DNA of 64,000 bases from Patescibacteria group bacterium (GTDB lineage Bacteria; Patescibacteriota; Doudnabacteria; UBA920). The DNA lies in the NCBI GenBank assembly GCA_013387205.1, contig WARV01000001.1, forward strand, positions 86-64,085, given 5' to 3'. The notes beneath the pieces were generated by a model. That model ran no database searches, was not told the origin of the DNA, and worked only from the letters and a program-made list of their open reading frames with translations. Shown here one piece after another: positions 10,810 through 37,123 of the stretch. The number at the start of each line of letters is the position of its first letter. Within the stretch, counting starts at the first letter, position 1. The position numbers were made by a program, and so were the translations under genes.

Positions 10810-12346
10810 ATGGCAATAGGTTTAGGTTAAATTAGACCTATTAAAATCGAGCCATATGCTGGAAAACCCTTAGAATCTTTAACCCTAACTATGGAACAGT
10901 TTAAAGAATTGGGCAATCAGCAGGAAAGGCTTTCTCTTGTCTCTTATCTCTTTGGAATTATAGACGGCGAAGGTAGTTATCAGCTAGCTTCTGACATAAA
11001 TAAACATGGCCGTAGATATTTTTCCCCACAACTTAATATAAGCAACGCAAATCCAGGAATAATTGATTATTGCATAAAGGCTTTCAAACGTTTAGACGTA
11101 GCATATTATGTCTGGACGCCAAAAAAACACGGCAAAGAAAAATGCGTTTTATATCGATTGTGCGTAAAGGGAATAAAGAGAATGGCAAAATTTTTAGCGG
11201 TTGCGGCTTATTTCCCTCACGCTAAAATACGCCAAGCAAAGTTGTTAAAGAATTTTTGTGACTTGCGATTATCAATTGACCCAAAGAAAAAAGCCAGTGG
11301 TCACGAAATCACATACACAAATGCAGAAGTCGGATTCAAGAATGAACTTGGCCGACTAAACAAGGAATACAACACAAGAGGAAGAATCCTCAGAGACTAT
11401 ACGCTCGACTCTCTAAAAGAGAGATGATATAGTCCGACCTTCCACGAAATTGGAAGATTAACAAAACGTAATTACCTACCAAGACCCTACCCGCCGGGAA
11501 GATTTGATTGATGTGGTAACCAACGTGTCCGTCCAGGATACTCCACTCTTGTCAAACTTGCCGATGGGAACTGCCGCTAAGTCAACTTTGCACGAATATG
11601 CTACCGACAGCTTCGCCGATTATACCGATTCAGCCACCGCTGAAGGTTCCGGTGCTTCCGTTGTCGATTTGACTGCTCCGACACGCTCTAACAATGTAAA
11701 CCAAATTTTCAAGGATGACGTCAATGTCTCCAATACGGAAATTGCGGTTAATGGAGTGGTTGAGCCGTTCAAATACCAGCTCGGCAAAGTCATGGTGCAA
11801 CAGGCGAAAAATATTGAATTGGCTTTCATGGCCGGTTCAAGAAACTCCGGTAACTCCGGTGTCGCCCGCCGCCTCCAGGGTGTCATTAACGCAATTACCA
11901 CCAACGCTACTACCAGAGCTTCTGGAACTAGCTTGGGTGAAGTTGCTTTAAACGACATCTTGCAGATGATTTGGACTGGCACAGGTAAAGTCGCTACTAA
12001 CATTTATGTCGGTGCGACCTTGAAGAGAGATATCACCTCTCTGTCCACCACTGTTACCCGTTTCCAAGACGCTGCTTCAAAGCGTTTAACCAAACCGGTT
12101 TCAGTGTACGAATCAGATTTCGGTGTCCATGAAATCTACCTCCACAGGAACGTGCCGACTGGCGCGAACAACCTGACGTTGGTAGCTATCAACCCCGAAT
12201 TCCACCGCAAGTCCTACTTGCGCCCGACCCAGACCGTGCAGTTGCCGCCTGATGGCGATAGAACTCGCGCGATGATTGTTACCGAAGTCACCCTTGAACA
12301 CAAGGGAGAAAAGACTGGTGCAGTAGTCGGTGGATTCACCTCTTAA
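10810..12346 (+). CDS. Major capsid protein (DUF5309/SU10-like), spliced: join(10810..10822,11469..12346), 296 aa
   Basis: Splicing gives MAIGLITYQDPTRREDLIDVVTNVSVQDTPL..., restoring the REDL.D..N.S..DTP capsid motif; VYESDFG motif near the C-terminus. Confidence 0.88.
10823..11468 (+). ncRNA. Group I intron (646 nt) in major capsid gene
   Basis: P1 with U10822-G10835 wobble; P4 TGCTGG/TCAGCA; R CAGAGACTAT (11391-11400); S GATATAGTCC; P3 CGAGC/GCTCG; P8; P9; terminal G11468; P10 AATTA/TAATT. Confidence 0.92.
10891..11427 (+). CDS. Intron-encoded LAGLIDADG homing endonuclease (single motif)
   Basis: YLFGIIDGEGSY motif; lies inside the intron. Confidence 0.9.
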   Translation: MEQFKELGNQQERLSLVSYLFGIIDGEGSYQLASDINKHGRRYFSPQLNISNANPGIIDYCIKAFKRLDVAYYVWTPKKHGKEKCVLYRLCVKGIKRMAKFLAVAAYFPHAKIRQAKLLKNFCDLRLSIDPKKKASGHEITYTNAEVGFKNELGRLNKEYNTRGRILRDYTLDSLKER

Positions 12347-12409
12347 TAACTTAGTTGTTATTTGTTCGCCCCCCTTATCCCAATTGAGGGGGACGACAAT
12401 TGGGAAACA

Positions 12410-12782
12410 AATGAAAGAACAAGTGATAGGGAAAGAGCATTGGAACGTTGATAACGGGGATTTTAAGGGATTATGGGCTATCAATCCGGAAATGGCTCAA
12501 GGTGCTGACATTTGGCAGAAGATTGATGAGATTGTGATTGCCTACTCAAAATTAAATCCTGGCGAAGTTTTCTTGACCATACTGGAGAATAAAGCAGAAT
12601 CCGCAAGGCTCATGCACGAAACAGGGAAAACCAAGGGCGGAACGATGAGGTACGGTGCAGCATGGCCTCTGGGATTGTGGGTAAAGATAAAGCAACTCGC
12701 GCCGGACTTGTTTTTAAACAAGAAAAACTTCCATAAACTCTTAAGGAAATATCCAGGATTTACTATCGCAAAAAAAATATGA
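12410..12782 (+). CDS. Hypothetical protein after capsid
   Basis: ORF coupled (ATGA) to the glycosyltransferase. Confidence 0.7.
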
Positions 12783-15109
12783 AAACACTCTCTCTTTGTT
12801 TAATAGTTACCGCTGAAGATTTTAAAAAAGCCCTACCTGCCATAGAACAAATTAAGCCATTTGTAAATGAAGTTTGCATTACGGTCACGGACAGGACGGA
12901 AGGGTACGAAGATGGTGATAAATTAAAATTTTCTTACTTCAAATGGATTAATGATTTTGCCGCCGCTAGAAATTATAATTTTTCCCAAAGTTCTTGTGAC
13001 TGGATATTGTGGCTTGACGCTGATGACACTTTGGCTAATCCCGAAAAACTAAAAGGGTTAGTCCAATATGCGGAAGATAATCGGGTAGAAGGATATTACT
13101 TTTTATACAAATACGATTTTGACGCAAGCGGAAAATGCATAAACGAACACTGGAAAGCGCAGCTTCTTAAAAACAACGGGCATTTTAAATGGAAAGGCGC
13201 GATACACGAAGACCCTATCCAGGAACGCCCTGCAAGATGGGCGAAAGCTTACGATTGTGTTCGTATTCACCACTCCGACCACAAAAGGGGGAAGGAATCA
13301 AGCGAGCGCAATATGCGGATTCTGCTAAAGGAAAGAGAACGCGACCCCAAAGAGCCGAGAACCCTATTTTATCTAGGACGTGGATATATTGAATTGGAAG
13401 AATACCAAAAAGCCATTGACTGTTTAACTGAATACTTAGCCTTATCGGGATGGGATGACGAAAGGTATGAGGCAAGGCTGTTGATTGGAAGCTGTTTCAT
13501 GAGGACAAAACAGCATGAAGAAGCCTTGGGTTGGTATAACTCGGCTATTTTGGAGAAGGAAGAGTATCCAGACGCCTATATCCAAAAGGGCATGGCCTAT
13601 TTAAAGCTTGAAAAATGGGGACAAGCGCTTTCAAATTTTAAAACTGCCTTGGGTATGAACATCCCGGACGCTTCCACTTATTTCAACCCCATGCTTTACA
13701 AACGTGACTTATTCCTTGGAATCGCTTTTGCGTATTTGCAGATTGCCGAACTCGACCAGGCTTTGCCAGCAGTGCTGCAAGCTGAAAAAGCTGACCCAAA
13801 ATACCAAGAAACTTTGGATTTAAAAAAGATAATAGTTGAATTGAAATTTAAACACGATACTTCTAACCATTACGCCCGGTTAGCAAAATATTTAAAAGAC
13901 AAGAACCAGGAAGACAAGATTTTACCCTTATTATCTTCTGCACCGAAAGAACTGTTAGACGACCCTATTCTTCTTTCCTTGAAGTTCGCTTACCAGAAAC
14001 AATACACTTGGCCGGAGAAGTCAATTGCCGTTTATTGCGGTCCAACGGCTGAAAGCTGGACACCGGATTCACAGAATAACGGAGGGATAGGCGGAAGCGA
14101 AACCGCAGTAATCGAACTGACGAACAGATTGGCGGAAGATGGCTGGAATATCACAGTTTATAACCAATGCGACGCCCCGCCGGAAGGAAAGAGATACAGC
14201 AAGGTTTTATATAAAAATTACTGGACGTTTAACGTAGATGATGAATTTGATGTTTTGTGGGTTTGGAGATTGCCAGAACTTTTTGACTACGACTTGAATG
14301 CCAGACTGAAAATCTTAGATTTACATGATACCATGTCACCGGCAGATTTTACGCCTGAACGGGTGGCGAAAATGGACAAGATTTTTGTTAAGACAAATTT
14401 TCACCGTTCACTATATCCGAAAATCGCTGATGACAAATTCGTAATTGTCGGAAACGGGATTGATTTGAAGAGGTTTGAAGGAAAAGCAGAAAAAGACCCG
14501 CACCGATTCATGTATTCTTCCACACCAAACAGGGGGCTTGATACTCTGTTAAAGATGTGGCCGAAGATTAAAGAAAAAATCCCCGAAGCGACCCTGCATG
14601 TTTACTACGGTTGGAACACCTTTTACAAACTGGAGAAAAATAACCCAGAACGGATGATGTGGATGAAAAAAGTGCAGGAAATGATGAAACAGGACGGGGT
14701 AGTAGATCACGGGCGAGTTGGACAAAAAGAACTTGCCCAGGATATGTTAAAAACTTCCTTTTGGCTCTACCCCACTGACTTTCCGGAAATTGACTGCATT
14801 ACGGCCAAGGAAATGCAGGCAGCGGGAGTATATCCCATAACTTCTGGTTACGCAGCATTAGAAGAAAGCCAGATAAGTGGCATGAAGGTCAGGGGCGACA
14901 CTTACGACCCTGAGTGGCAAAAAGAATACATCAAGGAAGTGGTTAGTTATAAGGATGCAGAAATTAACCACGAGCATATTAAAACATTAAGTAAACAATT
15001 TTCTTGGGACAATGTAGCCCAAGTATGGAAGGAGCAATTAAATGGCGAAAGTTACAATAAAGAACTTGGGCGAGATTCAGCAAGCACCGAAGGAGAAATT
15101 TCAAATTAA
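12779..15109 (+). CDS. Multidomain glycosyltransferase: GT2 + TPR repeats + GT4-like (GT-B) domain
   Basis: DFAAARN...WILWLDADD (GT2, SunS/flagellin-GT type); TPR-like helical repeats; GIGGSETAV and E-x7-E (EIDCITAKE). Confidence 0.9.
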   Translation: MKTLSLCLIVTAEDFKKALPAIEQIKPFVNEVCITVTDRTEGYEDGDKLKFSYFKWINDFAAARNYNFSQSSCDWILWLDADDTLANPEKLKGLVQYAEDNRVEGYYFLYKYDFDASGKCINEHWKAQLLKNNGHFKWKGAIHEDPIQERPARWAKAYDCVRIHHSDHKRGKESSERNMRILLKERERDPKEPRTLFYLGRGYIELEEYQKAIDCLTEYLALSGWDDERYEARLLIGSCFMRTKQHEEALGWYNSAILEKEEYPDAYIQKGMAYLKLEKWGQALSNFKTALGMNIPDASTYFNPMLYKRDLFLGIAFAYLQIAELDQALPAVLQAEKADPKYQETLDLKKIIVELKFKHDTSNHYARLAKYLKDKNQEDKILPLLSSAPKELLDDPILLSLKFAYQKQYTWPEKSIAVYCGPTAESWTPDSQNNGGIGGSETAVIELTNRLAEDGWNITVYNQCDAPPEGKRYSKVLYKNYWTFNVDDEFDVLWVWRLPELFDYDLNARLKILDLHDTMSPADFTPERVAKMDKIFVKTNFHRSLYPKIADDKFVIVGNGIDLKRFEGKAEKDPHRFMYSSTPNRGLDTLLKMWPKIKEKIPEATLHVYYGWNTFYKLEKNNPERMMWMKKVQEMMKQDGVVDHGRVGQKELAQDMLKTSFWLYPTDFPEIDCITAKEMQAAGVYPITSGYAALEESQISGMKVRGDTYDPEWQKEYIKEVVSYKDAEINHEHIKTLSKQFSWDNVAQVWKEQLNGESYNKELGRDSASTEGEISN

Positions 15110-15182
15110 ATATCATAGCGGAATTACAACCTTAGAAGATGTGATCAACCAGCTAAACGAACATTTTAAGGAAAATGCCTAA
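15042..15182 (+). CDS. Small hypothetical protein (46 aa)
   Basis: AAGGAG RBS; MAKVTIKNLGEIQQ...KENA*; overlaps both neighbours. Confidence 0.5.
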   Translation: MAKVTIKNLGEIQQAPKEKFQIKYHSGITTLEDVINQLNEHFKENA

Positions 15183-16059
15183 GCTAAAGATTTCTTTTTT
15201 GTGGGATGGAGTGCGACTGCATTACGGCCAGAGATTTAAAGACGGGCTGTTTATGGCTCTTCAACACCTTAAGGAAAAGCATGAAGTTCGGATGTTTGAA
15301 CCTGACGAGATTGATAAAATAAATGGCTTTCGACCTGACGTGTTGCTGTATTGGGGTGCGTTGTGTGAGAATTCTAAACCCCTAGTTGCCTCTTACCCTT
15401 ATAAAAAAGCGATTTGTTTTGCCGGTGGACCGATTGAGCCAGGTAATGTGGACGGATTTGACCTTTACTTTACCGAATCAGAACAAAATGAATGGGAGTT
15501 TAAGGCTCTGAATAAACCATACATGAGGGCGTTTGGGGTAAATGAGGAACTGTATAAACCTTTACCATTAGAGAAAAAATATGACGCAATTTTCTTCGGC
15601 ACTCATGCGCTTTGGAAAAGGAATGACTTGTTTGCTAAAGCGGTTAAAGACAAAGGCGTGTCGATTGGCATTTTCCAAGACCACGAAAAAGAATGTTACC
15701 AAATCCCGCAAGCCGAGGGTTGTGAAGTCCATGACGAATTACCGAGGGAAGAAGTCGTTACGTTCATCAATCAAAGTCATATTGCCTTAAATACTGCTAA
15801 TTTCTGGGATGGGGGACAAAGGATGACCCTTGAGGCTATGGCTTGCGACGTTCCGCCGATAGTGATGAGCGATTCACCAAAAAACATGGAATATGTGGAT
15901 GAATCAGGGGTGGGGTTAGTAGTTGAACCAAACATAGAAGCGATAAGGGAAGCCATCGGAAGATTAAAAGGAACACAGGCGGGAAGAAAATACATTTTAT
16001 CAAAATGGACATCTAAACATTACGCTCAAAATTTAGAAAAAGGGCTATTACAATTATGA
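15175..16059 (+). CDS. Glycosyltransferase, GT4-like
   Basis: DGGQRMTLEAMACDVP motif, GLVVEPN. Confidence 0.85.
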   Translation: MPKLKISFLWDGVRLHYGQRFKDGLFMALQHLKEKHEVRMFEPDEIDKINGFRPDVLLYWGALCENSKPLVASYPYKKAICFAGGPIEPGNVDGFDLYFTESEQNEWEFKALNKPYMRAFGVNEELYKPLPLEKKYDAIFFGTHALWKRNDLFAKAVKDKGVSIGIFQDHEKECYQIPQAEGCEVHDELPREEVVTFINQSHIALNTANFWDGGQRMTLEAMACDVPPIVMSDSPKNMEYVDESGVGLVVEPNIEAIREAIGRLKGTQAGRKYILSKWTSKHYAQNLEKGLLQL

Positions 16060-17126
16060 TTCCTATTTCCAAACCATCAGCCGACGACCAGACCAAACAA
16101 GATTTATTGGAAGTTTTAGATTCGGGCTGGTGGGGCAAGGGGCCAAAAGTTGAAGAATTTGAAAAAAAGTTTGCCGAATATGTTGGACAGCAATATGCCG
16201 TTGCTGTTAACTCCGCCACTTCTGCCCTGGATTTATGTTTAAAAGCTGCTGATATTTCCGGCGGCGAACTTTACACCACTCCATTGACTTTTGTTTCTGA
16301 CGCCATTGTGGGGGAGTGGAATAACATGACCGTGACGTTTGGAGATATCGACCCGGAAACACTCTGTTTAGACCCTAAAAGTTTTTATCCATCTAAAAAC
16401 ACTAAGGCGGTAATTGCAGTGGATTCTCATGGAAGGTTGGCTGACATTGATGGTTTTAGGAAAAAGTTTAACGGGTTGATTATTGAAGACGCCGCCCATG
16501 CCATGTACACCCCAGGAGCAGGAAAAGGTGATATGACCGTTTGGTCTTTCCAGGCAGTAAAGACTTTGCCTTGCGGTGACGGCGGCATGATTACCACTAA
16601 CAATAAGAAATATTACGACAAGTTAAAATCCTTAACTTGGTTAGGAATTGAAAAGCCAACATTCTCCCGTGTTTCAGACAAAGGCTACCAATGGGATTAC
16701 GATATTTTCCAATCAGGCATAAAAGCCTATATGAATGATTTAACGGCGGTAATTGGCCTTGGACAACTTAGAAGACTTGATGAAATGAACGCCTGGCGCA
16801 GGGGCATACAAGACCAATATAACGAAGCGTTTAAAAACCATCCACATATCAAGATTCCTGCTTATTCCCATACAGTTCAATATTATACGCCAAGATTTAA
16901 AGACCGTGACGAGCTATGCCAATACTTAGCTAGTAAAGGGATATGCAGCTCTGTCCATTTTAAACCTTTAACAGAGATGGATTACTGGCGCAAGCATTCC
17001 CGATCTGCTCCCATTCCTAATGTCTATCGAATTTGGCCTGAATTATTATCCCTGCCTGTGTATTACGGTTTAACTGGAGATGAAGTTAATCACATTATTA
17101 AAACAGTTCTTGATTTCTATGGCTAA
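16056..17126 (+). CDS. DegT/DnrJ/EryC1/StrS sugar aminotransferase
   Basis: AVNSATSAL, IEDAAHA, SFQAVK (PLP Lys), GDGGM. Confidence 0.95.
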   Translation: MIPISKPSADDQTKQDLLEVLDSGWWGKGPKVEEFEKKFAEYVGQQYAVAVNSATSALDLCLKAADISGGELYTTPLTFVSDAIVGEWNNMTVTFGDIDPETLCLDPKSFYPSKNTKAVIAVDSHGRLADIDGFRKKFNGLIIEDAAHAMYTPGAGKGDMTVWSFQAVKTLPCGDGGMITTNNKKYYDKLKSLTWLGIEKPTFSRVSDKGYQWDYDIFQSGIKAYMNDLTAVIGLGQLRRLDEMNAWRRGIQDQYNEAFKNHPHIKIPAYSHTVQYYTPRFKDRDELCQYLASKGICSSVHFKPLTEMDYWRKHSRSAPIPNVYRIWPELLSLPVYYGLTGDEVNHIIKTVLDFYG

Positions 17127-17700
17127 ACTGTCGGTCATTATTCCTCATTACCCATACGGTGACGAAATTAATAATAAGTTGGATGAATGTAGGAGCAAAC
17201 TGGAAAATTACGACGAACTTGTATTAGTTGTTAATCAGGGAATTGGTTTTGCAAAAGCAGTGAATTTGGGTTTTAAGATGGCAAAAGGTGATTTTCTGCT
17301 TTTAGTGAGTAATGACGTAATTTATACGGGCGGTGATATTCGGGATTTATGTGACCCAGAAGCAGTGACTTGTCCAGTAGTGAACGGAAGAAGGCAGGAA
17401 TTTTACGGATGCACCTTTTGCTTGCCGAGATGGGTATATGAAAAGATATGTGCCTTAAGAGGTGGAAAACAATTTTTAGATGAACAATTTGATATTGGTT
17501 TTTTTGAAGATGACAATCTAATTATGGAACTTCGCCAACTAAATATTCCTATGCGCTCAGTTAAAACAGTTTCCGCCGTAACCCAAGGCAGCCAGACTAT
17601 GAAGATTTTTGGTTCCGCTGACCCTTATAACAACAACCGCGCGAGATTTATTAAGAAATGGGGTGTAAGCAGTTCTAACCCGATTAAATATGAAGATTAG
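17119..17700 (+). CDS. Glycosyltransferase family 2
   Basis: SVIIP, GFAKAVNLG, LVSNDV, FFEDD. Confidence 0.85.
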   Translation: MAKLSVIIPHYPYGDEINNKLDECRSKLENYDELVLVVNQGIGFAKAVNLGFKMAKGDFLLLVSNDVIYTGGDIRDLCDPEAVTCPVVNGRRQEFYGCTFCLPRWVYEKICALRGGKQFLDEQFDIGFFEDDNLIMELRQLNIPMRSVKTVSAVTQGSQTMKIFGSADPYNNNRARFIKKWGVSSSNPIKYED

Positions 17701-18349
17701 CGTAATTTGTGTTACCAACCGTAAAGGCGCAATAGCTTTCTTAAAGAAGCAGTTAGATAAACAGACCTTCAAAGACTTTGATGTTATCGTAGCAGATGAT
17801 AGTGGTGACGAAGATTTTTTCGAGCAGTTCAAGCCACGCCAAAAAAACGAAGGCGATGTTTGGAACTTAAACAAGGCATATAACGACTGCTTGAGCAAAG
17901 TAACTGGGGAACTAATTGTTTTTTTACAAGATTTTATTGAAATTCCCGCTAACGGATTAGAAAGATTTTGGGAACTTTATCAACTTTACCCAAATGATTT
18001 AATTACAGGTTGCGGACATAAATACGAAAACGGCAGGATTGCAGAAACGGACAGTAGGTGCTTTGGCGACAGAAAACTTGTTTCTTCTGACTGGACTTTT
18101 TATGAACTAAATTGGGCTTCTTGTCCCGCAAAAATTGCGCCAAGGTTTGAAGAAGATATGGACAAATTCTACGGTGGGGAAAATATCGTGTTTGCTTTAA
18201 AAGCCCATTTAAAAGGTTCGGAAATCTGGCTAGACCGGATAAACGAATGCAAGGGGCTTGCCCATAACGACAGGCCAAGTGACTGGGAAGATTTACACCA
18301 TAATAAGAATAATCGTTTAAATGACAAAATTAAGAGTTTAATTATATGA
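17690..18349 (+). CDS. Glycosyltransferase family 2
   Basis: ISVICVT, QTFKDFDVIVADD, GELIVFLQD, YGGEN. Confidence 0.85.
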   Translation: MKISVICVTNRKGAIAFLKKQLDKQTFKDFDVIVADDSGDEDFFEQFKPRQKNEGDVWNLNKAYNDCLSKVTGELIVFLQDFIEIPANGLERFWELYQLYPNDLITGCGHKYENGRIAETDSRCFGDRKLVSSDWTFYELNWASCPAKIAPRFEEDMDKFYGGENIVFALKAHLKGSEIWLDRINECKGLAHNDRPSDWEDLHHNKNNRLNDKIKSLII

Positions 18350-19077
18350 ATTTTTCAGACATCCTCAATGAAATAACGTTTTTTACAGGAGCAGACAAGG
18401 GAAACAACACCCCTGCTAGTTTTGTTGATTACCCGATCACTGACCGGACGGCGCATGTTAACAATGCTTTAGAGGAAACTGTCACTGAAATACTGGACTC
18501 CCAGGATGGATGGGATTGGGATGACACAAACAACACCGATTATCCGATTGCGACCACCAATTTAGTTGCCAATCAACAAGATTATTCTTTCCCGGCTTCA
18601 CTGAAGATTTTAAAAATTAAGAGGGTGGAAGTCTGTTTTGATGGGGTGAATTGGAAAGTTGCTCAGCCGTTCGATATCAGCCAAAGACAGCTAGCGACAG
18701 ATACCACTTCCATATCTAATGATTTTTCCACGTTATCGCCCTTTTACGACCCACAGGCTAACTCAGTCTTTCTTTACCCGATTCCGGCCACTAACGTAAC
18801 GGGCGGGTTAAAGGTCTGGTTTTCCCGTGAACCTAGTTTATTTATTACCACCGACACCACCAAAATTCCTGGAATTGATACTCCTTGGCACTCCCGTTTA
18901 TCAATGAAGGCATCTTTGAAATACGCAGTAGCTAAAAACCTACCCCACTTAATAAATACTTTAAAACCACTTTTGGACGAGCAGGAAATGAAGATGAGGG
19001 TTTACTATGGTTCAAAAGAAAAAGACAGAAAATATCAATTTACTTCAGCTTATAACAATAATACTTATGGAAGATAA
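18346..19077 (+). CDS. Head-tail adaptor-like protein
   Basis: LVANQQDYSFP, LYPIP motifs; position. Confidence 0.65.
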   Translation: MNFSDILNEITFFTGADKGNNTPASFVDYPITDRTAHVNNALEETVTEILDSQDGWDWDDTNNTDYPIATTNLVANQQDYSFPASLKILKIKRVEVCFDGVNWKVAQPFDISQRQLATDTTSISNDFSTLSPFYDPQANSVFLYPIPATNVTGGLKVWFSREPSLFITTDTTKIPGIDTPWHSRLSMKASLKYAVAKNLPHLINTLKPLLDEQEMKMRVYYGSKEKDRKYQFTSAYNNNTYGR

Positions 19078-25032: not shown

Positions 25033-25752
25033 TTAATTATTAACTGGTATTACTTGGTTAGTGATAGTATTGATGAACTTAAAATTTCTCAAGATAATTT
25101 GTGCGTCGGTAATTCCCGTGTAGTTTGGTATCATTGGCAATCTGACTTCACCAGAAAGCTTGTCAGTAGTAACGACAACCTTTTGATTTAAATTGTTTAC
25201 TGGTGCGATATCAATATTTGCTTGAATGAAATTATTATTCTGTATTCCATTAACCAGTACATACGGATTAGGCAAAATACCGGGTTTTAAACTAACCAAT
25301 GCATCAAAAGTTAAAGTGTTGTAACCCTCGGTATTTTCTTTGTTACTGGAGCAAGTATAAGTTCCGCCAACATTAAAATATGTAGTCTGACAATGGAATA
25401 CTAAAGGAGTAGTGACTGGCGTGGTGGTCTGGTTGGATGACGGAGTTTCAACTGTACCTGCCGGTTGAGGAACATACACAGGGACATAAACAGTTTCGGG
25501 TGTTGATTGCGGAACAGGAGATTGTCCAGAAGTTTGAGGTAGAGAACCTAAGCCTAAAGCTTGCCTAGTAGTAACTGTACCATCTTTCTTTAAGCACTCG
25601 CTATTCATAAAACAGATATATTGCGGTTCGGTAATTGAAACAGTAGTGTCAAAGATATTTCCGTCCAAAAATCCCATTAAAGCAGCTTTCGCAGGAGTAT
25701 ATATAGTGAAACCTAAAATAGCAAAAACCGCATAAAACAATGTTTTTTTCAT
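25033..25752 (-). CDS. Secreted protein (moron-like)
   Basis: Signal peptide MKKTLFYAVFAILGFTIYTPAKA; P/T-rich linker; opposite strand. Confidence 0.75.
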   Translation of the reverse strand: MKKTLFYAVFAILGFTIYTPAKAALMGFLDGNIFDTTVSITEPQYICFMNSECLKKDGTVTTRQALGLGSLPQTSGQSPVPQSTPETVYVPVYVPQPAGTVETPSSNQTTTPVTTPLVFHCQTTYFNVGGTYTCSSNKENTEGYNTLTFDALVSLKPGILPNPYVLVNGIQNNNFIQANIDIAPVNNLNQKVVVTTDKLSGEVRLPMIPNYTGITDAQIILRNFKFINTITNQVIPVNN

Positions 25753-25917: not shown

Positions 25918-26178
25918 ATGGCAAACTTTACCACCCAAACTAAATCCGCATCTGTTTTTACAGGACAAGCCAAATCTTCTGCTCCGACTTTTGCCAATGC
26001 CACCAAAAATTCGGCATCGTTTTCCATAGTTGACAAATTGGTTTTGCTACTTCAGGAAATGGGCGATTTTCTTTTAATGGAAAATGGGGATTTTATTCTA
26101 GTTCGTGGTGTTAGCGATTACGGTTTTGCAAATCCTTCTAAAAACAACAGTTCATTTACCAATTTAACTAAAAACTAA
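25918..26178 (+). CDS. Small virion-associated protein
   Basis: F-T-x-x-x-K-N/S repeats; LLQE.GDFLL.E.GD motif. Confidence 0.6.
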   Translation: MANFTTQTKSASVFTGQAKSSAPTFANATKNSASFSIVDKLVLLLQEMGDFLLMENGDFILVRGVSDYGFANPSKNNSSFTNLTKN

Positions 26179-27203
26179 TGGCAAATAAGAAAATATCAGA
26201 ATTAACAACTGGAACACCCCAAAATACTGATTGGGTTCCTTTTGTTGACATAGCAGCCGGAGAAACAAAAAAAGCCACCAAGTCTGATTTGAAAGGTGAT
26301 AAGGGTGACACCGGAAACGCCGCCACTGTAAATGTCGGCTCAACCACTACAGGGGCAGCAGGCACTTCGGCTTCCGTTACCAATTCCGGCACGACTTCTG
26401 CCGCTATCCTAAACTTTACTATTCCAAGGGGAGATACAGGGGCAACCGGAGCGACAGGGGCAACTGGCCCACAAGGGGCAAAAGGAGACACTGGAAATAC
26501 AGGTGCAACAGGGCCACAGGGTATCCAAGGCATTAAAGGTGATAAGGGCGTAAACTGGAAAGGCGCATATAGCGGTTCAACTGCCTATATTATCGACGAC
26601 GCTGTTTCTTACAATGGCAGTTCTTATGTTTGTATATTAGCTTCCACCGGAAACTTACCTACCAATACGACTTATTGGAATTTGATGGCGCAAAAGGGTG
26701 CGGATGGCTCAGGTTCCGGTTCCGGCGACGTTACCGGCCCCGCTTCCTCCACAGATAACGGCATAGTTAGATTTGACGGCTTGACAGGCAAGATAATCCA
26801 AAACTCTACTAACGTTGTGATTGATGATTCAGGCAACGTCGGGATTGGGACGACGAATCCGAGCGAAAAATTAGATGTAAATGGCAACATCACGAATGAA
26901 TATTTGACTTTAGCGGGAAACCAATTCAATGCGGTGGGAACTTCCAATGAAATCGCCGTAAATTATGCTAATAAAACAAAAGATTTGCATGTTTATACAA
27001 ATGTGGGAAACGGATTTTTGGTACAAGGAAGCAGCGGCAACGTCGGCATTGGGACGACTACACCAACAGCCTACCTCCATTTAAAGGCCGGTACAGCCAC
27101 GGCAAACACCGCTCCGATTAAATTAACCGCAGGTGTTGTGAATACTACCCCAGAAACAGGAACTATTGAATTTGATGGGACAGATTTCTATTTAAACATT
27201 TAA
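26178..27203 (+). CDS. Collagen-like tail fibre protein
   Basis: G-x-y repeats; WKGAYSGSTAYIIDDAVSYNGSSY module; GNVGIGTT repeats. Confidence 0.85.
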   Translation: MANKKISELTTGTPQNTDWVPFVDIAAGETKKATKSDLKGDKGDTGNAATVNVGSTTTGAAGTSASVTNSGTTSAAILNFTIPRGDTGATGATGATGPQGAKGDTGNTGATGPQGIQGIKGDKGVNWKGAYSGSTAYIIDDAVSYNGSSYVCILASTGNLPTNTTYWNLMAQKGADGSGSGSGDVTGPASSTDNGIVRFDGLTGKIIQNSTNVVIDDSGNVGIGTTNPSEKLDVNGNITNEYLTLAGNQFNAVGTSNEIAVNYANKTKDLHVYTNVGNGFLVQGSSGNVGIGTTTPTAYLHLKAGTATANTAPIKLTAGVVNTTPETGTIEFDGTDFYLNI

Positions 27204-32631: not shown

Positions 32632-33120
32632 ATGATTAATATGGAAGAAAAATTTTTACATTCCAAAGCTCTTTCACCCAATCCCAAAGACTTGCTTGGC
32701 ATGAAAAAGGTATCTATTACCAAAGTTCCAGCTACCGCACTTGCTCATTGCGCTCATGCCATGATGAATGGGGCTGATAAGTACGGAGCGTATAATTGGC
32801 GTGACAAAGCTGTATATGCTTCTATTTACGTTGACGCCTGTTTCCGTCACCTAACGGCCTGGTTTGAAGGTGAAGAAATTGCAACTGATTCCAAAGTTCA
32901 CCATTTAGGACACGCTATGGCTTGTCTGGCAATTATTCTTGACGCCAAAGAAACTGGCAACTTAATTGACGACAGGCCGGTAAACGACCAATCGCGCGGC
33001 GCATATACCAAGGTTTTAGCTGGAATGAATGAAAAGTTTACAGCTAACAAGGACTTAAAAGAGCAAATTATGGAAGAATGGGCTGACAGTGAAGCCTGCC
33101 AAAAACTAGCGGATAAATAA
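32632..33120 (+). CDS. dATP/dGTP diphosphohydrolase N-terminal domain (DUF5664-like)
   Basis: NPKD..G.KK, GADKYGAYNWR, RHL.AWFEGE, HHLGHA.ACLAI. Confidence 0.85.
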   Translation: MINMEEKFLHSKALSPNPKDLLGMKKVSITKVPATALAHCAHAMMNGADKYGAYNWRDKAVYASIYVDACFRHLTAWFEGEEIATDSKVHHLGHAMACLAIILDAKETGNLIDDRPVNDQSRGAYTKVLAGMNEKFTANKDLKEQIMEEWADSEACQKLADK

Positions 33121-33743: not shown

Positions 33744-34020
33744 ACTGAAACATAAAAGTTTTTTTGACGTTTTAATATACGATTTGACAGCTTTTTAAAA
33801 TAGGCGTATACCTAAGACATAATAAACTAAATAACCACTTATAACCTGTTAAATCGGGTTGCCCCAAATAAAGGGGGCTTGCGGATAAGTGATCAGACTA
33901 AAGGCCATTATTTGTGATACAATAAGAGCCTAGCCCTAAGTTTGGAAACAAAAATAGTGGCCAAAATTCTGTCTGTCACCATAAAGCCCGCAAGCTGAGT
34001 GGTTGGCAGGCAGTTTTTTT

Positions 34021-34890
34021 ATGAACAACGCGATTGTTACTTATTTGGAGTGGAAGGGGATAGCCCATGAGAGAGCATCTAAAGCCTATATAAAACCATT
34101 ACACAGGCTGGCTGAATATTTAAACAAAAAAGTTAGTGAACTTACTACGGATGATGTAAAAAAGTTCCTCAAATATTTAAAAGAGGAGCTTCCCAAGCTG
34201 TCTACAAGGGGGGATTGGCGCACAAACTTTTATTTCCATACGAATGTCATCCGTGATTTTATTAAACATTGGAATGATGAGGGGGTGTGTAATGTAAGGC
34301 CAGGAATTATCGAGGTTCCCAAGTACAGTTTCAACCCTTACCCATCGGTTACTATTGAAGAATTTGAGATGATGGATGATTATCTAGCCACCGAGCCAGA
34401 CAATTTTGCCAATCTTCAGAAACGGATGATTATACACTTTTTATGGTGGACGGGCGTTAGGGTATCAGAGCTTACCGATTTAAGATGGACTATTATTAAC
34501 CAATCCGAGCAGGGATTACCAATAAAAAATAAAAAGAACGGTGATATCAGATATATATTTTGGCCACCCCAAACCCACTTACTGCTTTTAAGATTTATCA
34601 GGGAAAGAAAACAGTTTACTGGGAATAGCCTATTAGTGACTTACCTGGGGAAAATGCACCCTCGCTGTGTCCAAAGGTTTTTAGAAAATTTAGGGAAAAA
34701 ACTGGGGATAACTTACCACCTATCACCACACTGTTTTCGTCAGGGTTGGGCAAAATATAGGTTGGAAAAGGGGGCGGATCTAAAACTAATAAAAGACGGA
34801 TTAGGCCACACTTCTTACGATTCTACGGACAGATACTTAATACTAAATTATAAACTGCAAAGGGAAAGAGCGGTGAAATATTTGACATAA
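34021..34890 (+). CDS. Tyrosine recombinase/integrase (XerC/D-like)
   Basis: TGVRVSE (R), KNG (K), HCFR, LGH, DRY catalytic residues intact; no long arm-binding domain. Confidence 0.92.
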   Translation: MNNAIVTYLEWKGIAHERASKAYIKPLHRLAEYLNKKVSELTTDDVKKFLKYLKEELPKLSTRGDWRTNFYFHTNVIRDFIKHWNDEGVCNVRPGIIEVPKYSFNPYPSVTIEEFEMMDDYLATEPDNFANLQKRMIIHFLWWTGVRVSELTDLRWTIINQSEQGLPIKNKKNGDIRYIFWPPQTHLLLLRFIRERKQFTGNSLLVTYLGKMHPRCVQRFLENLGKKLGITYHLSPHCFRQGWAKYRLEKGADLKLIKDGLGHTSYDSTDRYLILNYKLQRERAVKYLT

Positions 34891-35932: not shown

Positions 35933-37123
35933 TTAATTTCCACCATTTTGTTTATAGCATCCTAAAATTTTAGGCGCATAGTTTCTTGTTTCGTTATAGC
36001 CAGTATTACACGTAGCAGTGGATCCTTGTGGGCCATTATAGAGACATTCCCATTTCTTTGTCGGCTGTCCTGCGCAGTCGTTTTGCCCTGCGCAAGTGAC
36101 GCTGTTTTGGCAGGCCATGCTGCCTCCGTTGTATCCAGCGGCGATATTTCTAACGTCGTTGCCGCAGCCATTGCGGCTAAGCAACTCTAAATATTTTGCT
36201 CCGATGCAAATGCTCTTGGTCGCGTTATTTGGGTTATTAAGCCATGCGCATGTTATGTTATCTGTCACTCCGCATGATGATTTTAAGTTGTTTGCCGTCT
36301 GGGGCAAAAGCTGCATAAGTCCGCACGAACCTGCATTAGATGTTGAATTTATATTACAACTCGATTCATTAACCATAATGGATTTAATTAGCGCTTCAGT
36401 ATTAATTCCTGGGATGCTGATTGCCGCAGCTGCATCCTTTATTGCAGTCCCATAATTGTTGCAATTGCTGTTCCAGCAAGTTACGTTTGCTGCTTGGCAC
36501 AAGTTGGCTGCTGTCATACTACTTACATTGGAACATGACCCATTGACTGAATTAACGCCAGCCTGATCGCGGGCAACGCCCTGGTATAAATTGGCAGTCG
36601 GAGCTTCCATTAACTCCAATCTTACACTCTGCGGCTGGATATTTTGGAATTTGACCAGGTCAGGATTAATAGCTCTTAGGAAGATAAAGCCAATGAATAA
36701 AATGATTAAGGATGTTACGGTACTGACTAATATGTTTTTCGCTTTGTCTACCGATTCCTGGCTGCCATCTGCAGACATATAAATATATCCGGCTATAACA
36801 ATAAAAAATACGCCGATTATGGAAGCTAAGATTATGGAAAAGCGATAAAGCCTGTTGATGCAGGTGTAAAGGTCGTTTTGGGCAGCATTATTTGCACCTA
36901 CTTGGCTGTCTGACCCGGTACCGAAAAAACTGCCGTTTTGGCTCCAATATTTTCCTTGGTTATTTTCAGTCGGCGCGCACAAATATTGTTTAATTTGGTC
37001 AGACACATGGTACTGGGTGTAATTTGGCGAGCTGCTAGTTTGTGCAAAAGCTAAATTTGCATAAGACAAAATAACTTGGACAAGAAGAAATGCCAAAAGA
37101 TATGTTTTTAATTTATTGGTCAT
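35933..37123 (-). CDS. TrbC/VirB2-type pilin domain fused to SLT lytic transglycosylase
   Basis: IIGVFFIVIAGYIYMSADG...KAKNIL...INPDL; SLT motifs NESS, GLMQL, AAGYNGG, ETRNY. Confidence 0.85.
   Translation of the reverse strand: MTNKLKTYLLAFLLVQVILSYANLAFAQTSSSPNYTQYHVSDQIKQYLCAPTENNQGKYWSQNGSFFGTGSDSQVGANNAAQNDLYTCINRLYRFSIILASIIGVFFIVIAGYIYMSADGSQESVDKAKNILVSTVTSLIILFIGFIFLRAINPDLVKFQNIQPQSVRLELMEAPTANLYQGVARDQAGVNSVNGSCSNVSSMTAANLCQAANVTCWNSNCNNYGTAIKDAAAAISIPGINTEALIKSIMVNESSCNINSTSNAGSCGLMQLLPQTANNLKSSCGVTDNITCAWLNNPNNATKSICIGAKYLELLSRNGCGNDVRNIAAGYNGGSMACQNSVTCAGQNDCAGQPTKKWECLYNGPQGSTATCNTGYNETRNYAPKILGCYKQNGGN

Follow-up and report, generated by a model that had tools for sequence, protein, structure and literature searches.

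Why does a phage carry glycosyltransferase (GT) genes inside the operon that builds its head? In the 64,000-nucleotide stretch of DNA analysed here (the window), a run of overlapping sugar-handling genes occupies the interval between the major capsid and head–tail adaptor genes of a prophage (Table 1), and the original prediction took them for a system that places an amino-sugar-containing glycan on virion proteins. A check of the open reading frames (ORFs) found every named ORF at the predicted position on the forward strand, with the overlaps as described, and the five predicted GT domains are confirmed (two, GT2 and GT-B, in the 776-aa lead enzyme and one each in the 294-aa GT4, GT2 a and GT2 b). 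We suggest, with a probability of roughly 0.65, that the cassette glycosylates the phage's own virion proteins.

Table 1 Features of the prophage (window coordinates)
Feature	Position	Strand	Basis
SU10-type major capsid protein gene, intron-split (exon 1, 10810-10822; exon 2, 11469-12346; 296 aa if spliced)	10810..12346	+	PF17236 (SU10_MCP) E 1.3e-62
Probable group I intron in capsid gene	10823..11468	+	RF00028 35.5 bits, E 2.8e-7; gathering score 50
Stem-loop 3' of capsid stop codon, without U run	12350..12404	+	Folds at -21.6 kcal/mol
X123, conserved 123-aa protein, first gene of the region	12411..12782	+	Synteny, HMM
Lead enzyme, 776 aa (GT2-TPR-GT4); conserved core	12779..15109	+	Pfam, predicted model, PDB matches
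46-aa ORF, without family	15042..15182	+	Weak conservation in three close relatives
GT4 glycosyltransferase, 294 aa; variable cassette member	15175..16059	+	PF00534 E 5.5e-9
DegT/DnrJ sugar aminotransferase, 356 aa; accessory	16056..17126	+	PF01041 E 6.5e-74
GT2 glycosyltransferase a, 193 aa from ATG 17119 (longest ORF from 17080)	17119..17700	+	PF00535 E 2.4e-5
GT2 glycosyltransferase b	17690..18349	+	PF00535 E 2.6e-6
SU10-type head–tail adaptor; right border of cassette	18346..19077	+	PF24175 (SU10_adaptor) E 1e-7
Tail-fibre-like protein with collagen triplets	26178..27203	+	PF01391, PHROG tail fibre
Tyrosine integrase at phage–host boundary	34003..34890	+	PF00589 E 3e-19

Prophage setting and the capsid border

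Judged from its sequence, the element is an integrated, temperate, podovirus-type prophage of the SU10/LUZ24 type, and host genes begin at 35933, beyond the integrase. The host is a small-genome bacterium, its genome probably Patescibacteria-like. Its replication (left) arm lies off the contig, no attachment site was found and, among contigs from three DNA runs, no single piece spans the whole phage–host junction. Gene overlaps join the cassette to the head operon at either end, and scans of the region returned no excess of promoters (20 found, 20.8 expected) and terminators at chance level.

Two features at the capsid border, the capsid intron and the X123 gene, had been overlooked in the original prediction. 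Computational splicing of the capsid gene yields one open frame whose start resembles that of intact relatives; the probable intron contains a 178-aa homing-endonuclease-like ORF (10891-11427; PHROG 5046, E 1.5e-6), a hairpin covers its predicted 5' splice site, and no intron-less allele was present in contigs of the three DNA runs. The stem-loop behind the capsid stop codon, which is absent from the terminator scan output, is a possible attenuator. X123 sits between the capsid and lead-enzyme genes in 77 of 81 SU10-type loci and has relatives in 1468 clusters. Its HMM matched PaP3 orf8 (E 1.3e-5 in a 7-sequence test; hhalign 54.6%), two single-sequence hhalign tests were negative, the best fold match in the PDB reached a Z of only 3.3, no consistent PHROG emerged and small unnamed phage proteins matched weakly (E 0.02). 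X123 is probably a generic morphogenesis protein of the LUZ24-like kind, distantly related to the gene of ~105 aa that separates capsid and adaptor in LUZ24-like phages, and is not specific to glycosylation.

A conserved lead enzyme related to protein glycosyltransferases

The lead enzyme consists of a GT2 domain (about residues 1-190; PF00535), a TPR region (about 190-405, with Pfam matches at 189-292) and a GT4-type GT-B domain (about 412-762), and its predicted model (pLDDT 93.4) shows helical repeats after the GT2 domain. The solved structures that best match the GT2 domain are those of glycosyltransferases acting on proteins or peptides: GmaR (E 1e-30), SunS (E 6e-22) and ThuS (E 1e-19); the top Foldseek match of the lead enzyme is SunS, and its score against the SunS family TIGR04195 is 41.7 bits versus a cut-off of 350. 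The GT2 motifs D80-x-D82-D83 and H143-E144, which align to GmaR and SunS, are invariant in 76 of 76 lead enzymes. The C-terminal GT-B domain gave no Pfam match at E 1e-4 and no match by sequence in the PDB; it is supported by PHROG 2170, by a fold search (Z 30.5, rmsd 2.8 A over 325 residues to GT4-type enzymes) and by an E-x7-E motif (E670 in 76/76, E678 in 73/76).

GmaR (PDB 22AO), a flagellin O-GlcNAc transferase that is the best solved GT2 match, shares the order of an N-terminal GT2 domain and TPRs, but has an antirepressor domain where the lead enzyme has its GT4 domain, and the lead enzyme is encoded in a phage head operon with no flagellin. The S-glycosyltransferases SunS and ThuS (PDB 7MSN, 7MSP, 7MSK) share the GT-A plus TPR fold (Z 24.2, rmsd 2.5 A over 266 residues), whereas the cassette shows no glycocin precursor or exporter. 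Excerpts of the literature describe GmaR of Listeria as transferring GlcNAc onto flagellin (PMC9638930) and SgtA of the Clostridioides difficile SgtA-BclA3 pair, to which the lead enzyme is likened by description and not by alignment, as putting the first GlcNAc on Thr of collagen repeats (PMC7157674).

The lead-enzyme family comprises at least 607 proteins, and 470 stretches of the viral collection match it. Among 50,697 phage records, 20 match the lead enzyme, none of them a mycobacteriophage; no cultured phage encodes it at full length, and the three full-length matches are metagenomic.

Capsid linkage and a hypervariable cassette

At least 2 kb of sequence upstream of the lead enzyme was available for 103 non-redundant loci. 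In 86 of these a capsid gene lies within 2 kb upstream of the lead enzyme, and the linkage spans two capsid lineages (77 SU10-type capsids and nine of a second type, PF25209). The second lineage forms one clade, in which the lead enzyme has an inserted methyltransferase-like domain; the 17 loci without a recognised capsid gene in that range include cellular or rearranged ones. The gene order recurs in dozens of relatives, which are kin and not independent events, and the arrangement exceeds chance. Searching in the opposite direction, from the capsid, was largely circular, in that 10 of the 11 contigs it turned up were known beforehand, and a capsid search with one protein as query found nothing.

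The lead enzyme is the conserved core of the system: in the closest relatives it retains 54-59% identity (portal, 34-41%; adaptor, 33-47%). The cassette downstream of it is hypervariable and swappable, with 26 layouts of GTs, methyltransferases and NDP-sugar enzymes among 36 complete cassettes, in which the 294-aa type of GT4 occurs 18 times and the GT2 a and GT2 b families 23 and 24 times, respectively. Given that the lead enzyme stands alone in one locus (L198) and with a methyltransferase only in another (L011), the extension enzymes are optional, and in other lineages (L235, MW202711) different GTs fill the same slot. The 46-aa ORF has weak tblastn matches (E 1.6e-4 to 0.023) at the corresponding position in three loci (L122, L085, L087).

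The cassette is likely a soluble system. Across the 36 cassettes, a single ORF out of 257 is predicted to contain two or more membrane helices (10 in a host flippase-like control), and no protein in the prophage part of the window has as many, which upholds the predicted absence of a flippase or GtrA/B.

Possible supply of an amino sugar

The aminotransferase is a clear DegT family member (PF01041, 249.7 versus a cut-off of 19.8 bits) with an intact PLP-site Asp144 and Schiff-base Lys169, both invariant in 40 of 40 sequences. Its best solved relative is ArnB (E 1.2e-45, aligned), yet it falls below every NCBIfam cut-off that would assign it a substrate (PseC, ArnB, WecE, DesI, LegC; best PseC, 223 versus 423.5). 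It is the only DegT in the 98%-complete genome, the host itself having none, and this completeness allows the donor supply to be reasoned. The original prediction had looked elsewhere for the keto-sugar precursor, and the host indeed encodes RmlABCD in an rmlCBDA operon on another contig (RmlB passes TIGR01181, 474.8 versus 365.1), together with GalE; on this gene inventory, host RmlABCD could supply a keto-sugar for DegT.

The original prediction had also named the system after the amino sugar, which is not its defining feature, because DegT is accessory: it is present at 12 of 117 loci, and 6 of the 36 complete cassettes have it. DegT is also scattered on the lead-enzyme tree, which excludes 17 of the 117 loci because their enzymes are split or very long. 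Of 31 viral loci carrying this DegT subfamily, 19 have it in the vicinity of head genes and 15 close to a capsid gene; on the host side, one of 400 genomes of the phylum matched (E 1e-90, 47%), and the locus there is of a polysaccharide type and lacks a recognised dehydratase. A short RmlD-like reductase accompanies 20 of the 31 DegT relatives and is absent from this locus and from the genome, so that this DegT may yield another product or be idle.

Proposed mechanism and candidate acceptors

What stands of the original prediction is its core: soluble, capsid-linked, protein-directed glycosylation best fits the synteny, the kinship with GmaR and SunS and the scarcity of membrane helices, whereas the amino sugar as its definer does not stand. 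Such a system would act in the cytoplasm on structural proteins during particle assembly. The TPR region may hold the virion protein while the GT2 domain adds the first sugar to Ser or Thr (as GmaR does on flagellin), the GT4 domain would attach a second sugar, and the separate GT4 and two GT2 enzymes would lengthen or cap the chain. If this reading is right, we consider it fairly probable that DegT aminates an NDP-keto-sugar of the host (most simply dTDP-4-keto-6-deoxyglucose from host RmlB) and that a GT installs the resulting amino sugar. Exchange of the cassette would then give each phage a different surface glycan.

The capsid protein and the Thr-rich collagen fibre are candidate acceptors. 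In 12 of 16 close relatives the capsid protein ends in Ser, a residue lost in most distant ones; the acceptor expected in virion glycosylation of the mycobacteriophage type is a Ser or Thr at the capsid C-terminus. Enrichment in Ser plus Thr was rejected as a sign of a capsid acceptor, as the capsids of cassette phages (median 18%, range 14-21%, n 74) are no richer in these residues than GT-less controls (13.6-21%, n 7). The fibre has 14 collagen triplets, seven of which end in Thr. As an acceptor shared by the whole family, collagen fibres were rejected: of the 54 loci for which 8 kb or more of downstream sequence was available, 3 showed such a fibre, although this survey was too short-ranged given that the fibre here lies 11 kb from the cassette.

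Relation to known virion glycosylation

The excerpted literature already shows phage virion glycosylation in mycobacteriophages and virus-made amino sugars on giant-virus particles. The former was reportedly described by Freeman et al. in 2023 for Che8 and other phages. As excerpted, PMC12619734 and PMC11256854 propose that mycobacteriophage GTs modify capsid and tail proteins, with glycans at C-termini; unlike the present case, these excerpts report no DegT, and those of PMC11256854 place the GT genes of the F1 phage Maravista near the genome 3' end and not in the head operon. The fibril clusters of Megavirinae (Mimivirus R141/L136/L142), which in excerpts of PMC10117803 put amino sugars on the particle, are alike by description in that the virus itself encodes an aminotransferase, GTs and methyltransferases, in a cluster that varies between clades, but these giant eukaryotic viruses, in the same excerpts, have their own dehydratase, whereas this phage has none and would borrow its keto-sugar. 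The present system, deduced from genes, likely resembles both with different enzymes. PaP3 and phiM5 share the LUZ24/SU10-type order of portal, scaffold, capsid, ~105-aa gene and adaptor, but none of the cultured members examined carries a GT in the interval from the small gene to the adaptor.

Alternative explanations

The alternative that survives best is a sub-case of virion glycosylation and does not exclude it: DegT may be a passenger, idle after losing its partner reductase, leaving a virion glycosylated without an amino sugar. The missing reductase and the rare, scattered occurrence of DegT fit this notion; nevertheless, we consider it rather unlikely, as the ORF is full-length with its PLP site intact, three relatives (L259, L261, L265) keep DegT in the absence of the reductase, and host RmlB is a plausible source of substrate.

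Less likely still is conversion of the host surface, in which a pilin or adhesin is glycosylated or a host glycan edited such that attachment changes or superinfection is blocked. The phage is integrated, the nearest named DegT relatives belong to Patescibacteria assemblies, GmaR-type enzymes modify cell appendages (PMC9638930, in excerpt) and surveys of CPR viruses, as excerpted, class such genes as auxiliary and related to host attachment (PMC11310336, PMC12647753). However, the gene overlaps that tie the cassette to the head operon at both ends, the promoter count, which is not raised, and the lack of a flippase or membrane GT speak against it, as do the correlation between lead-enzyme and capsid identity (Spearman 0.58, n 80, kin and not independent) and the presence of the full-length lead enzyme in 0 of 60 related genomes.

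We regard as improbable a target outside the virion (X123, the scaffold, or a protein by which the host defends itself or regulates its genes), with the TPR region serving assembly or counter-defence. TPR glycosyltransferases such as GmaR can moonlight as regulators (PMC9638930, in excerpt), and GroEL-like genes are inserted beside the lead enzyme in several relatives (L105, L113, L136, L178), but such a target leaves the hypervariable sugar-tailoring genes unexplained, X123 stays by the capsid gene when the lead enzyme relocates (L088, L097, L105), and the second capsid lineage has the lead enzyme without X123. The prophage also encodes, at 32632-33120, a dATP/dGTP diphosphohydrolase, a family that occurs in base-modification loci. 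Decoration of phage DNA bases ahead of packaging is nonetheless very improbable: DNA-modifying phage GT-A and GT-B enzymes exist (PMC12619734, in excerpt), a base-hydroxylating gene could lie unseen in the off-contig replication arm and T4 alpha-glucosyltransferase is in the fold list (Z 21.4), but there it is 40th of the 50 listed, far under GT4 members, the GT2-TPR architecture fits protein enzymes, and neither 85 cluster representatives nor the annotation of the complete relative MW202524 include a TET/JBP enzyme or hydroxymethylase.

Implications

Returning to virion glycosylation, we tentatively propose that a large group of uncultured tailed phages, temperate phages of Patescibacteria among them, has in a fixed slot behind the capsid gene an O-antigen-like 'glycan serotype' locus (that is, a two-headed priming enzyme followed by exchangeable sugar genes), which here may tap the host rhamnose pathway with a single aminotransferase for a particle sugar beyond the host's own ability. 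The value of the present copy lies in its 98%-complete genome and in a host that has RmlABCD and GalE and no DegT of its own, and the lead enzyme, being soluble and two-domain, can be assayed without phage culture. The host-attachment reading of CPR-virus glycosyltransferases is put in doubt; if the proposal is true, many of those classed as 'auxiliary metabolic' would be misread morphogenesis genes. The size of the lead-enzyme family suggests a widespread and modular trait, and on this proposal glycosylation would be common among natural virions.

Lead enzyme and its gene neighbourhood

The cassette between the capsid and adaptor genes is real and conserved. All of the open reading frames (ORFs) named in the original prediction are present and overlapping, with domain searches confirming the domains stated for them, and the gene run from the capsid into the cassette is as listed, except that two features had been overlooked, that is, the small gene X123 between the capsid gene and the lead enzyme, and a probable intron in the capsid gene (see table). 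Excision of the intron in silico gives a 296-amino-acid capsid frame resembling intact relatives. Of the 143 non-redundant loci, 7 (the window locus and 6 others) have a related endonuclease ORF at the capsid gene, and capsid-gene introns have already been published (PMC3706429).

Coordinates of features in the window and in related loci
Feature	Position	Strand	Remarks
Probable group I intron	10823-11468		646 bases; close to capsid gene start; contains endonuclease-like ORF
X123	12411-12782	+	123 aa
Lead enzyme	12779-15109	+	776 aa; GT2-TPR-GT4
Lone ORF	25033-25752	-	239 aa, amid virion genes; hydrophobic N-terminus; moron-like, no family
Fibre	26178
dATP/dGTP diphosphohydrolase (PF18909)	32632-33120		With metallophosphoesterase-like gene, close to lysis genes
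Tyrosine integrase	34003-34890		At phage end, then host genes
RmlD-like reductase, locus L212	9109-9723
RmlD-like reductase, locus L256	9107-9718
Lead enzyme with intein-like insertion, locus L014	9986-13315
Locus L085	OY969418.1:5374285-5396519		Chromosome labelled Acidobacteriota

The lead enzyme has at least 607 relatives and a confidently predicted structure (pLDDT 93.4). The closest solved structures to its GT2 domain are GmaR (E 1e-30), which transfers GlcNAc onto flagellin (PMC9638930), SunS and ThuS, and SunS also heads the Foldseek ranking; the catalytic motifs of both GT domains are invariant or almost so across 76 sequences. We predict that it works like GmaR/SunS-type enzymes without being a SunS member, because it does not reach the SunS family cut-off. 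Among relatives, the enzyme is split mid-GT-B with its second half fused to GT2b in six loci (L067, L102, L110, L115, L116 and L197), carries intein-like insertions in L014, P0008, P0085 and P0120 (PF14890, precomputed domains), and has a GroEL-like gene inserted next to it in the head module of L105, L113, L136 and L178.

Viral, metagenome and genome collections were scanned, with up to 80 loci retained from each scan (two scans had 470 and 507 positives), which gave at least 196 loci with the lead-enzyme cluster, 143 after 90% duplicate removal; both GT domains are present in 117, and 103 of these have at least 2 kb of upstream DNA. Of the 103, 86 have a capsid gene (77 SU10-type, 9 PF25209-type) no more than 2 kb upstream of the lead enzyme, and 90 have one at any upstream distance. 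DegT is found in only 12 of the 117 loci and is scattered over the lead-enzyme tree. The PF25209-type loci (L024, L026, L028, L029, L044, L059, L063, L064 and L076) form one clade whose lead enzyme has a methyltransferase-like insert, this version (GT2-TPR-methyltransferase-GT4, about 1000 amino acids) standing immediately 3' of the capsid gene.

Among the closest relatives, the lead enzyme is more conserved than the portal or adaptor. Its companions come in 26 layouts among 36 complete cassettes (GT2b in 24, GT2a in 23, methyltransferases in 21, GT4 in 18, SDR in 10 and DegT in 6), and one locus (L198) has the lead enzyme with no further cassette genes. In 77 of 81 SU10-type loci, X123 separates the capsid gene from the lead enzyme, and it remains with the capsid gene where the lead enzyme has moved. 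Its family spans 1468 clusters, and X123 itself is weakly similar to an approximately 105-amino-acid gene of LUZ24-like phages; the positional counterpart in phiM5 is not flagged among the proteins found in particles. X123 probably has a general role in morphogenesis.

Searching from the capsid instead gave 29 loci. In 11 of them the capsid identity is 44% or more and the downstream DNA is sufficient, and the lead enzyme follows in every one (10 already known); L223 (58% identity) ends too early to show the downstream gene. Of the six distant loci with flanking DNA, five showed no detected GT in the slot, which L235 fills with other GTs. PaP3, phiM5, MW202710 and MW202462 have no GT between the small gene and the adaptor, and MW202711 has one putative GT in the slot. 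SU10-type capsids occur in 5 of 400 other genomes of the phylum: on a 3.1-kb contig of G253 the capsid is followed by X123 and the lead enzyme, and the four divergent capsids show no such continuation within the 20 kb read. The latter (G117:C1, G009:C2, G342:C2 and G129:C1; L336-L339) sit in prophage-like head modules lacking a GT cassette. As GTs occupy the slot in only part of these sets, the cassette is lineage-specific, inserted into a common capsid–small gene–adaptor module. No cultured phage was found to carry a full-length lead enzyme.

Sugar supply

The DegT is intact and the only one in the genome; NCBIfam family scores allowed no substrate to be assigned, and its named closest relatives are from Patescibacteria assemblies. 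In 31 non-redundant viral loci of its subfamily (at least 55% identity), it has head genes nearby in 19, a capsid gene nearby in 15, and a long GT2-TPR enzyme as neighbour in only 7, so that sugar genes seem to pass from one phage lineage to another at the capsid–adaptor slot. A short RmlD-like reductase (about 205 amino acids, active-site motifs intact) adjoins the DegT in 20 of the 31 (L212, L256 and 18 others) and is absent from the window phage. No RmlB orthologue accompanies it in these loci, their SDRs having at most 31% identity to the host RmlB. The host has rmlC, rmlB, rmlD, rmlA and galE, and dTDP-4-keto-6-deoxyglucose would therefore be available to DegT; a 3-keto route is also possible, given that in two relatives the partner of DegT is a Gfo/Idh/MocA dehydrogenase in place of the reductase. 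It is conceivable, if doubtful, that virions are glycosylated while the DegT itself is idle.

Prophage and host

The host is probably one of the Patescibacteria: the surrounding genome (1.30 Mb, 24 contigs, 98% complete) has related genomes of 0.6-1.8 Mb and lacks a detectable ribosomal L30, L30 absence being a CPR marker, and a pilin-SLT gene lies downstream of the prophage. The prophage fills the first 35 kb of the window, its left arm lying off the contig end, and encodes small and large terminase, portal, a scaffold-like gene, SU10-type capsid, adaptor, fibres, a CHAP protein and the integrase; host genes follow. No attachment site was found. In three DNA runs from one study (which may be the source data), short contigs of similar depth tile the integrase–host boundary, with no single one bridging it. 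One close relative (L085, 59% identity in the lead enzyme) sits on a 9.5-Mb chromosome labelled Acidobacteriota, which is at odds with hosts confined to the CPR or else stems from misassembly.

Proposed role in virion glycosylation

We propose, with a probability of roughly 0.65, that the lead enzyme would place the first sugar on Ser/Thr of a structural protein and lengthen the glycan while the particle assembles, the variable cassette genes completing it. The capsid protein and the fibre are candidate acceptors. Among 16 close relatives, 12 have Ser as the C-terminal capsid residue, although this does not hold family-wide, and cassette-bearing phages do not stand apart from controls in capsid Ser+Thr content; of the 14 collagen triplets in the fibre, 7 end in Thr, and SgtA modifies sites of this kind (PMC7157674). 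Two surveys of CPR viruses place genes of this kind among auxiliary genes that help in attaching to the host (PMC11310336, PMC12647753), but conversion of the host surface is unlikely: 1 of 257 cassette ORFs has at least two predicted membrane helices. A non-virion protein as target is rather improbable. DNA modification is very improbable, the modelled C-terminal domain matching a GT4-type fold (Z 30.5) above T4 alpha-glucosyltransferase (21.4).

A GT has been noted in a Paceibacteria prophage (PMC12455944), and we found no published description of a head-operon GT2-TPR-GT4 family in a search that covered mostly the main texts of open-access papers. Mycobacteriophages have been reported to glycosylate virions with their own enzymes (PMC12619734, PMC11256854), and in Megavirinae amino sugars made by the virus sit on particles (PMC10117803). 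The function of the cassette is probably virion glycosylation.
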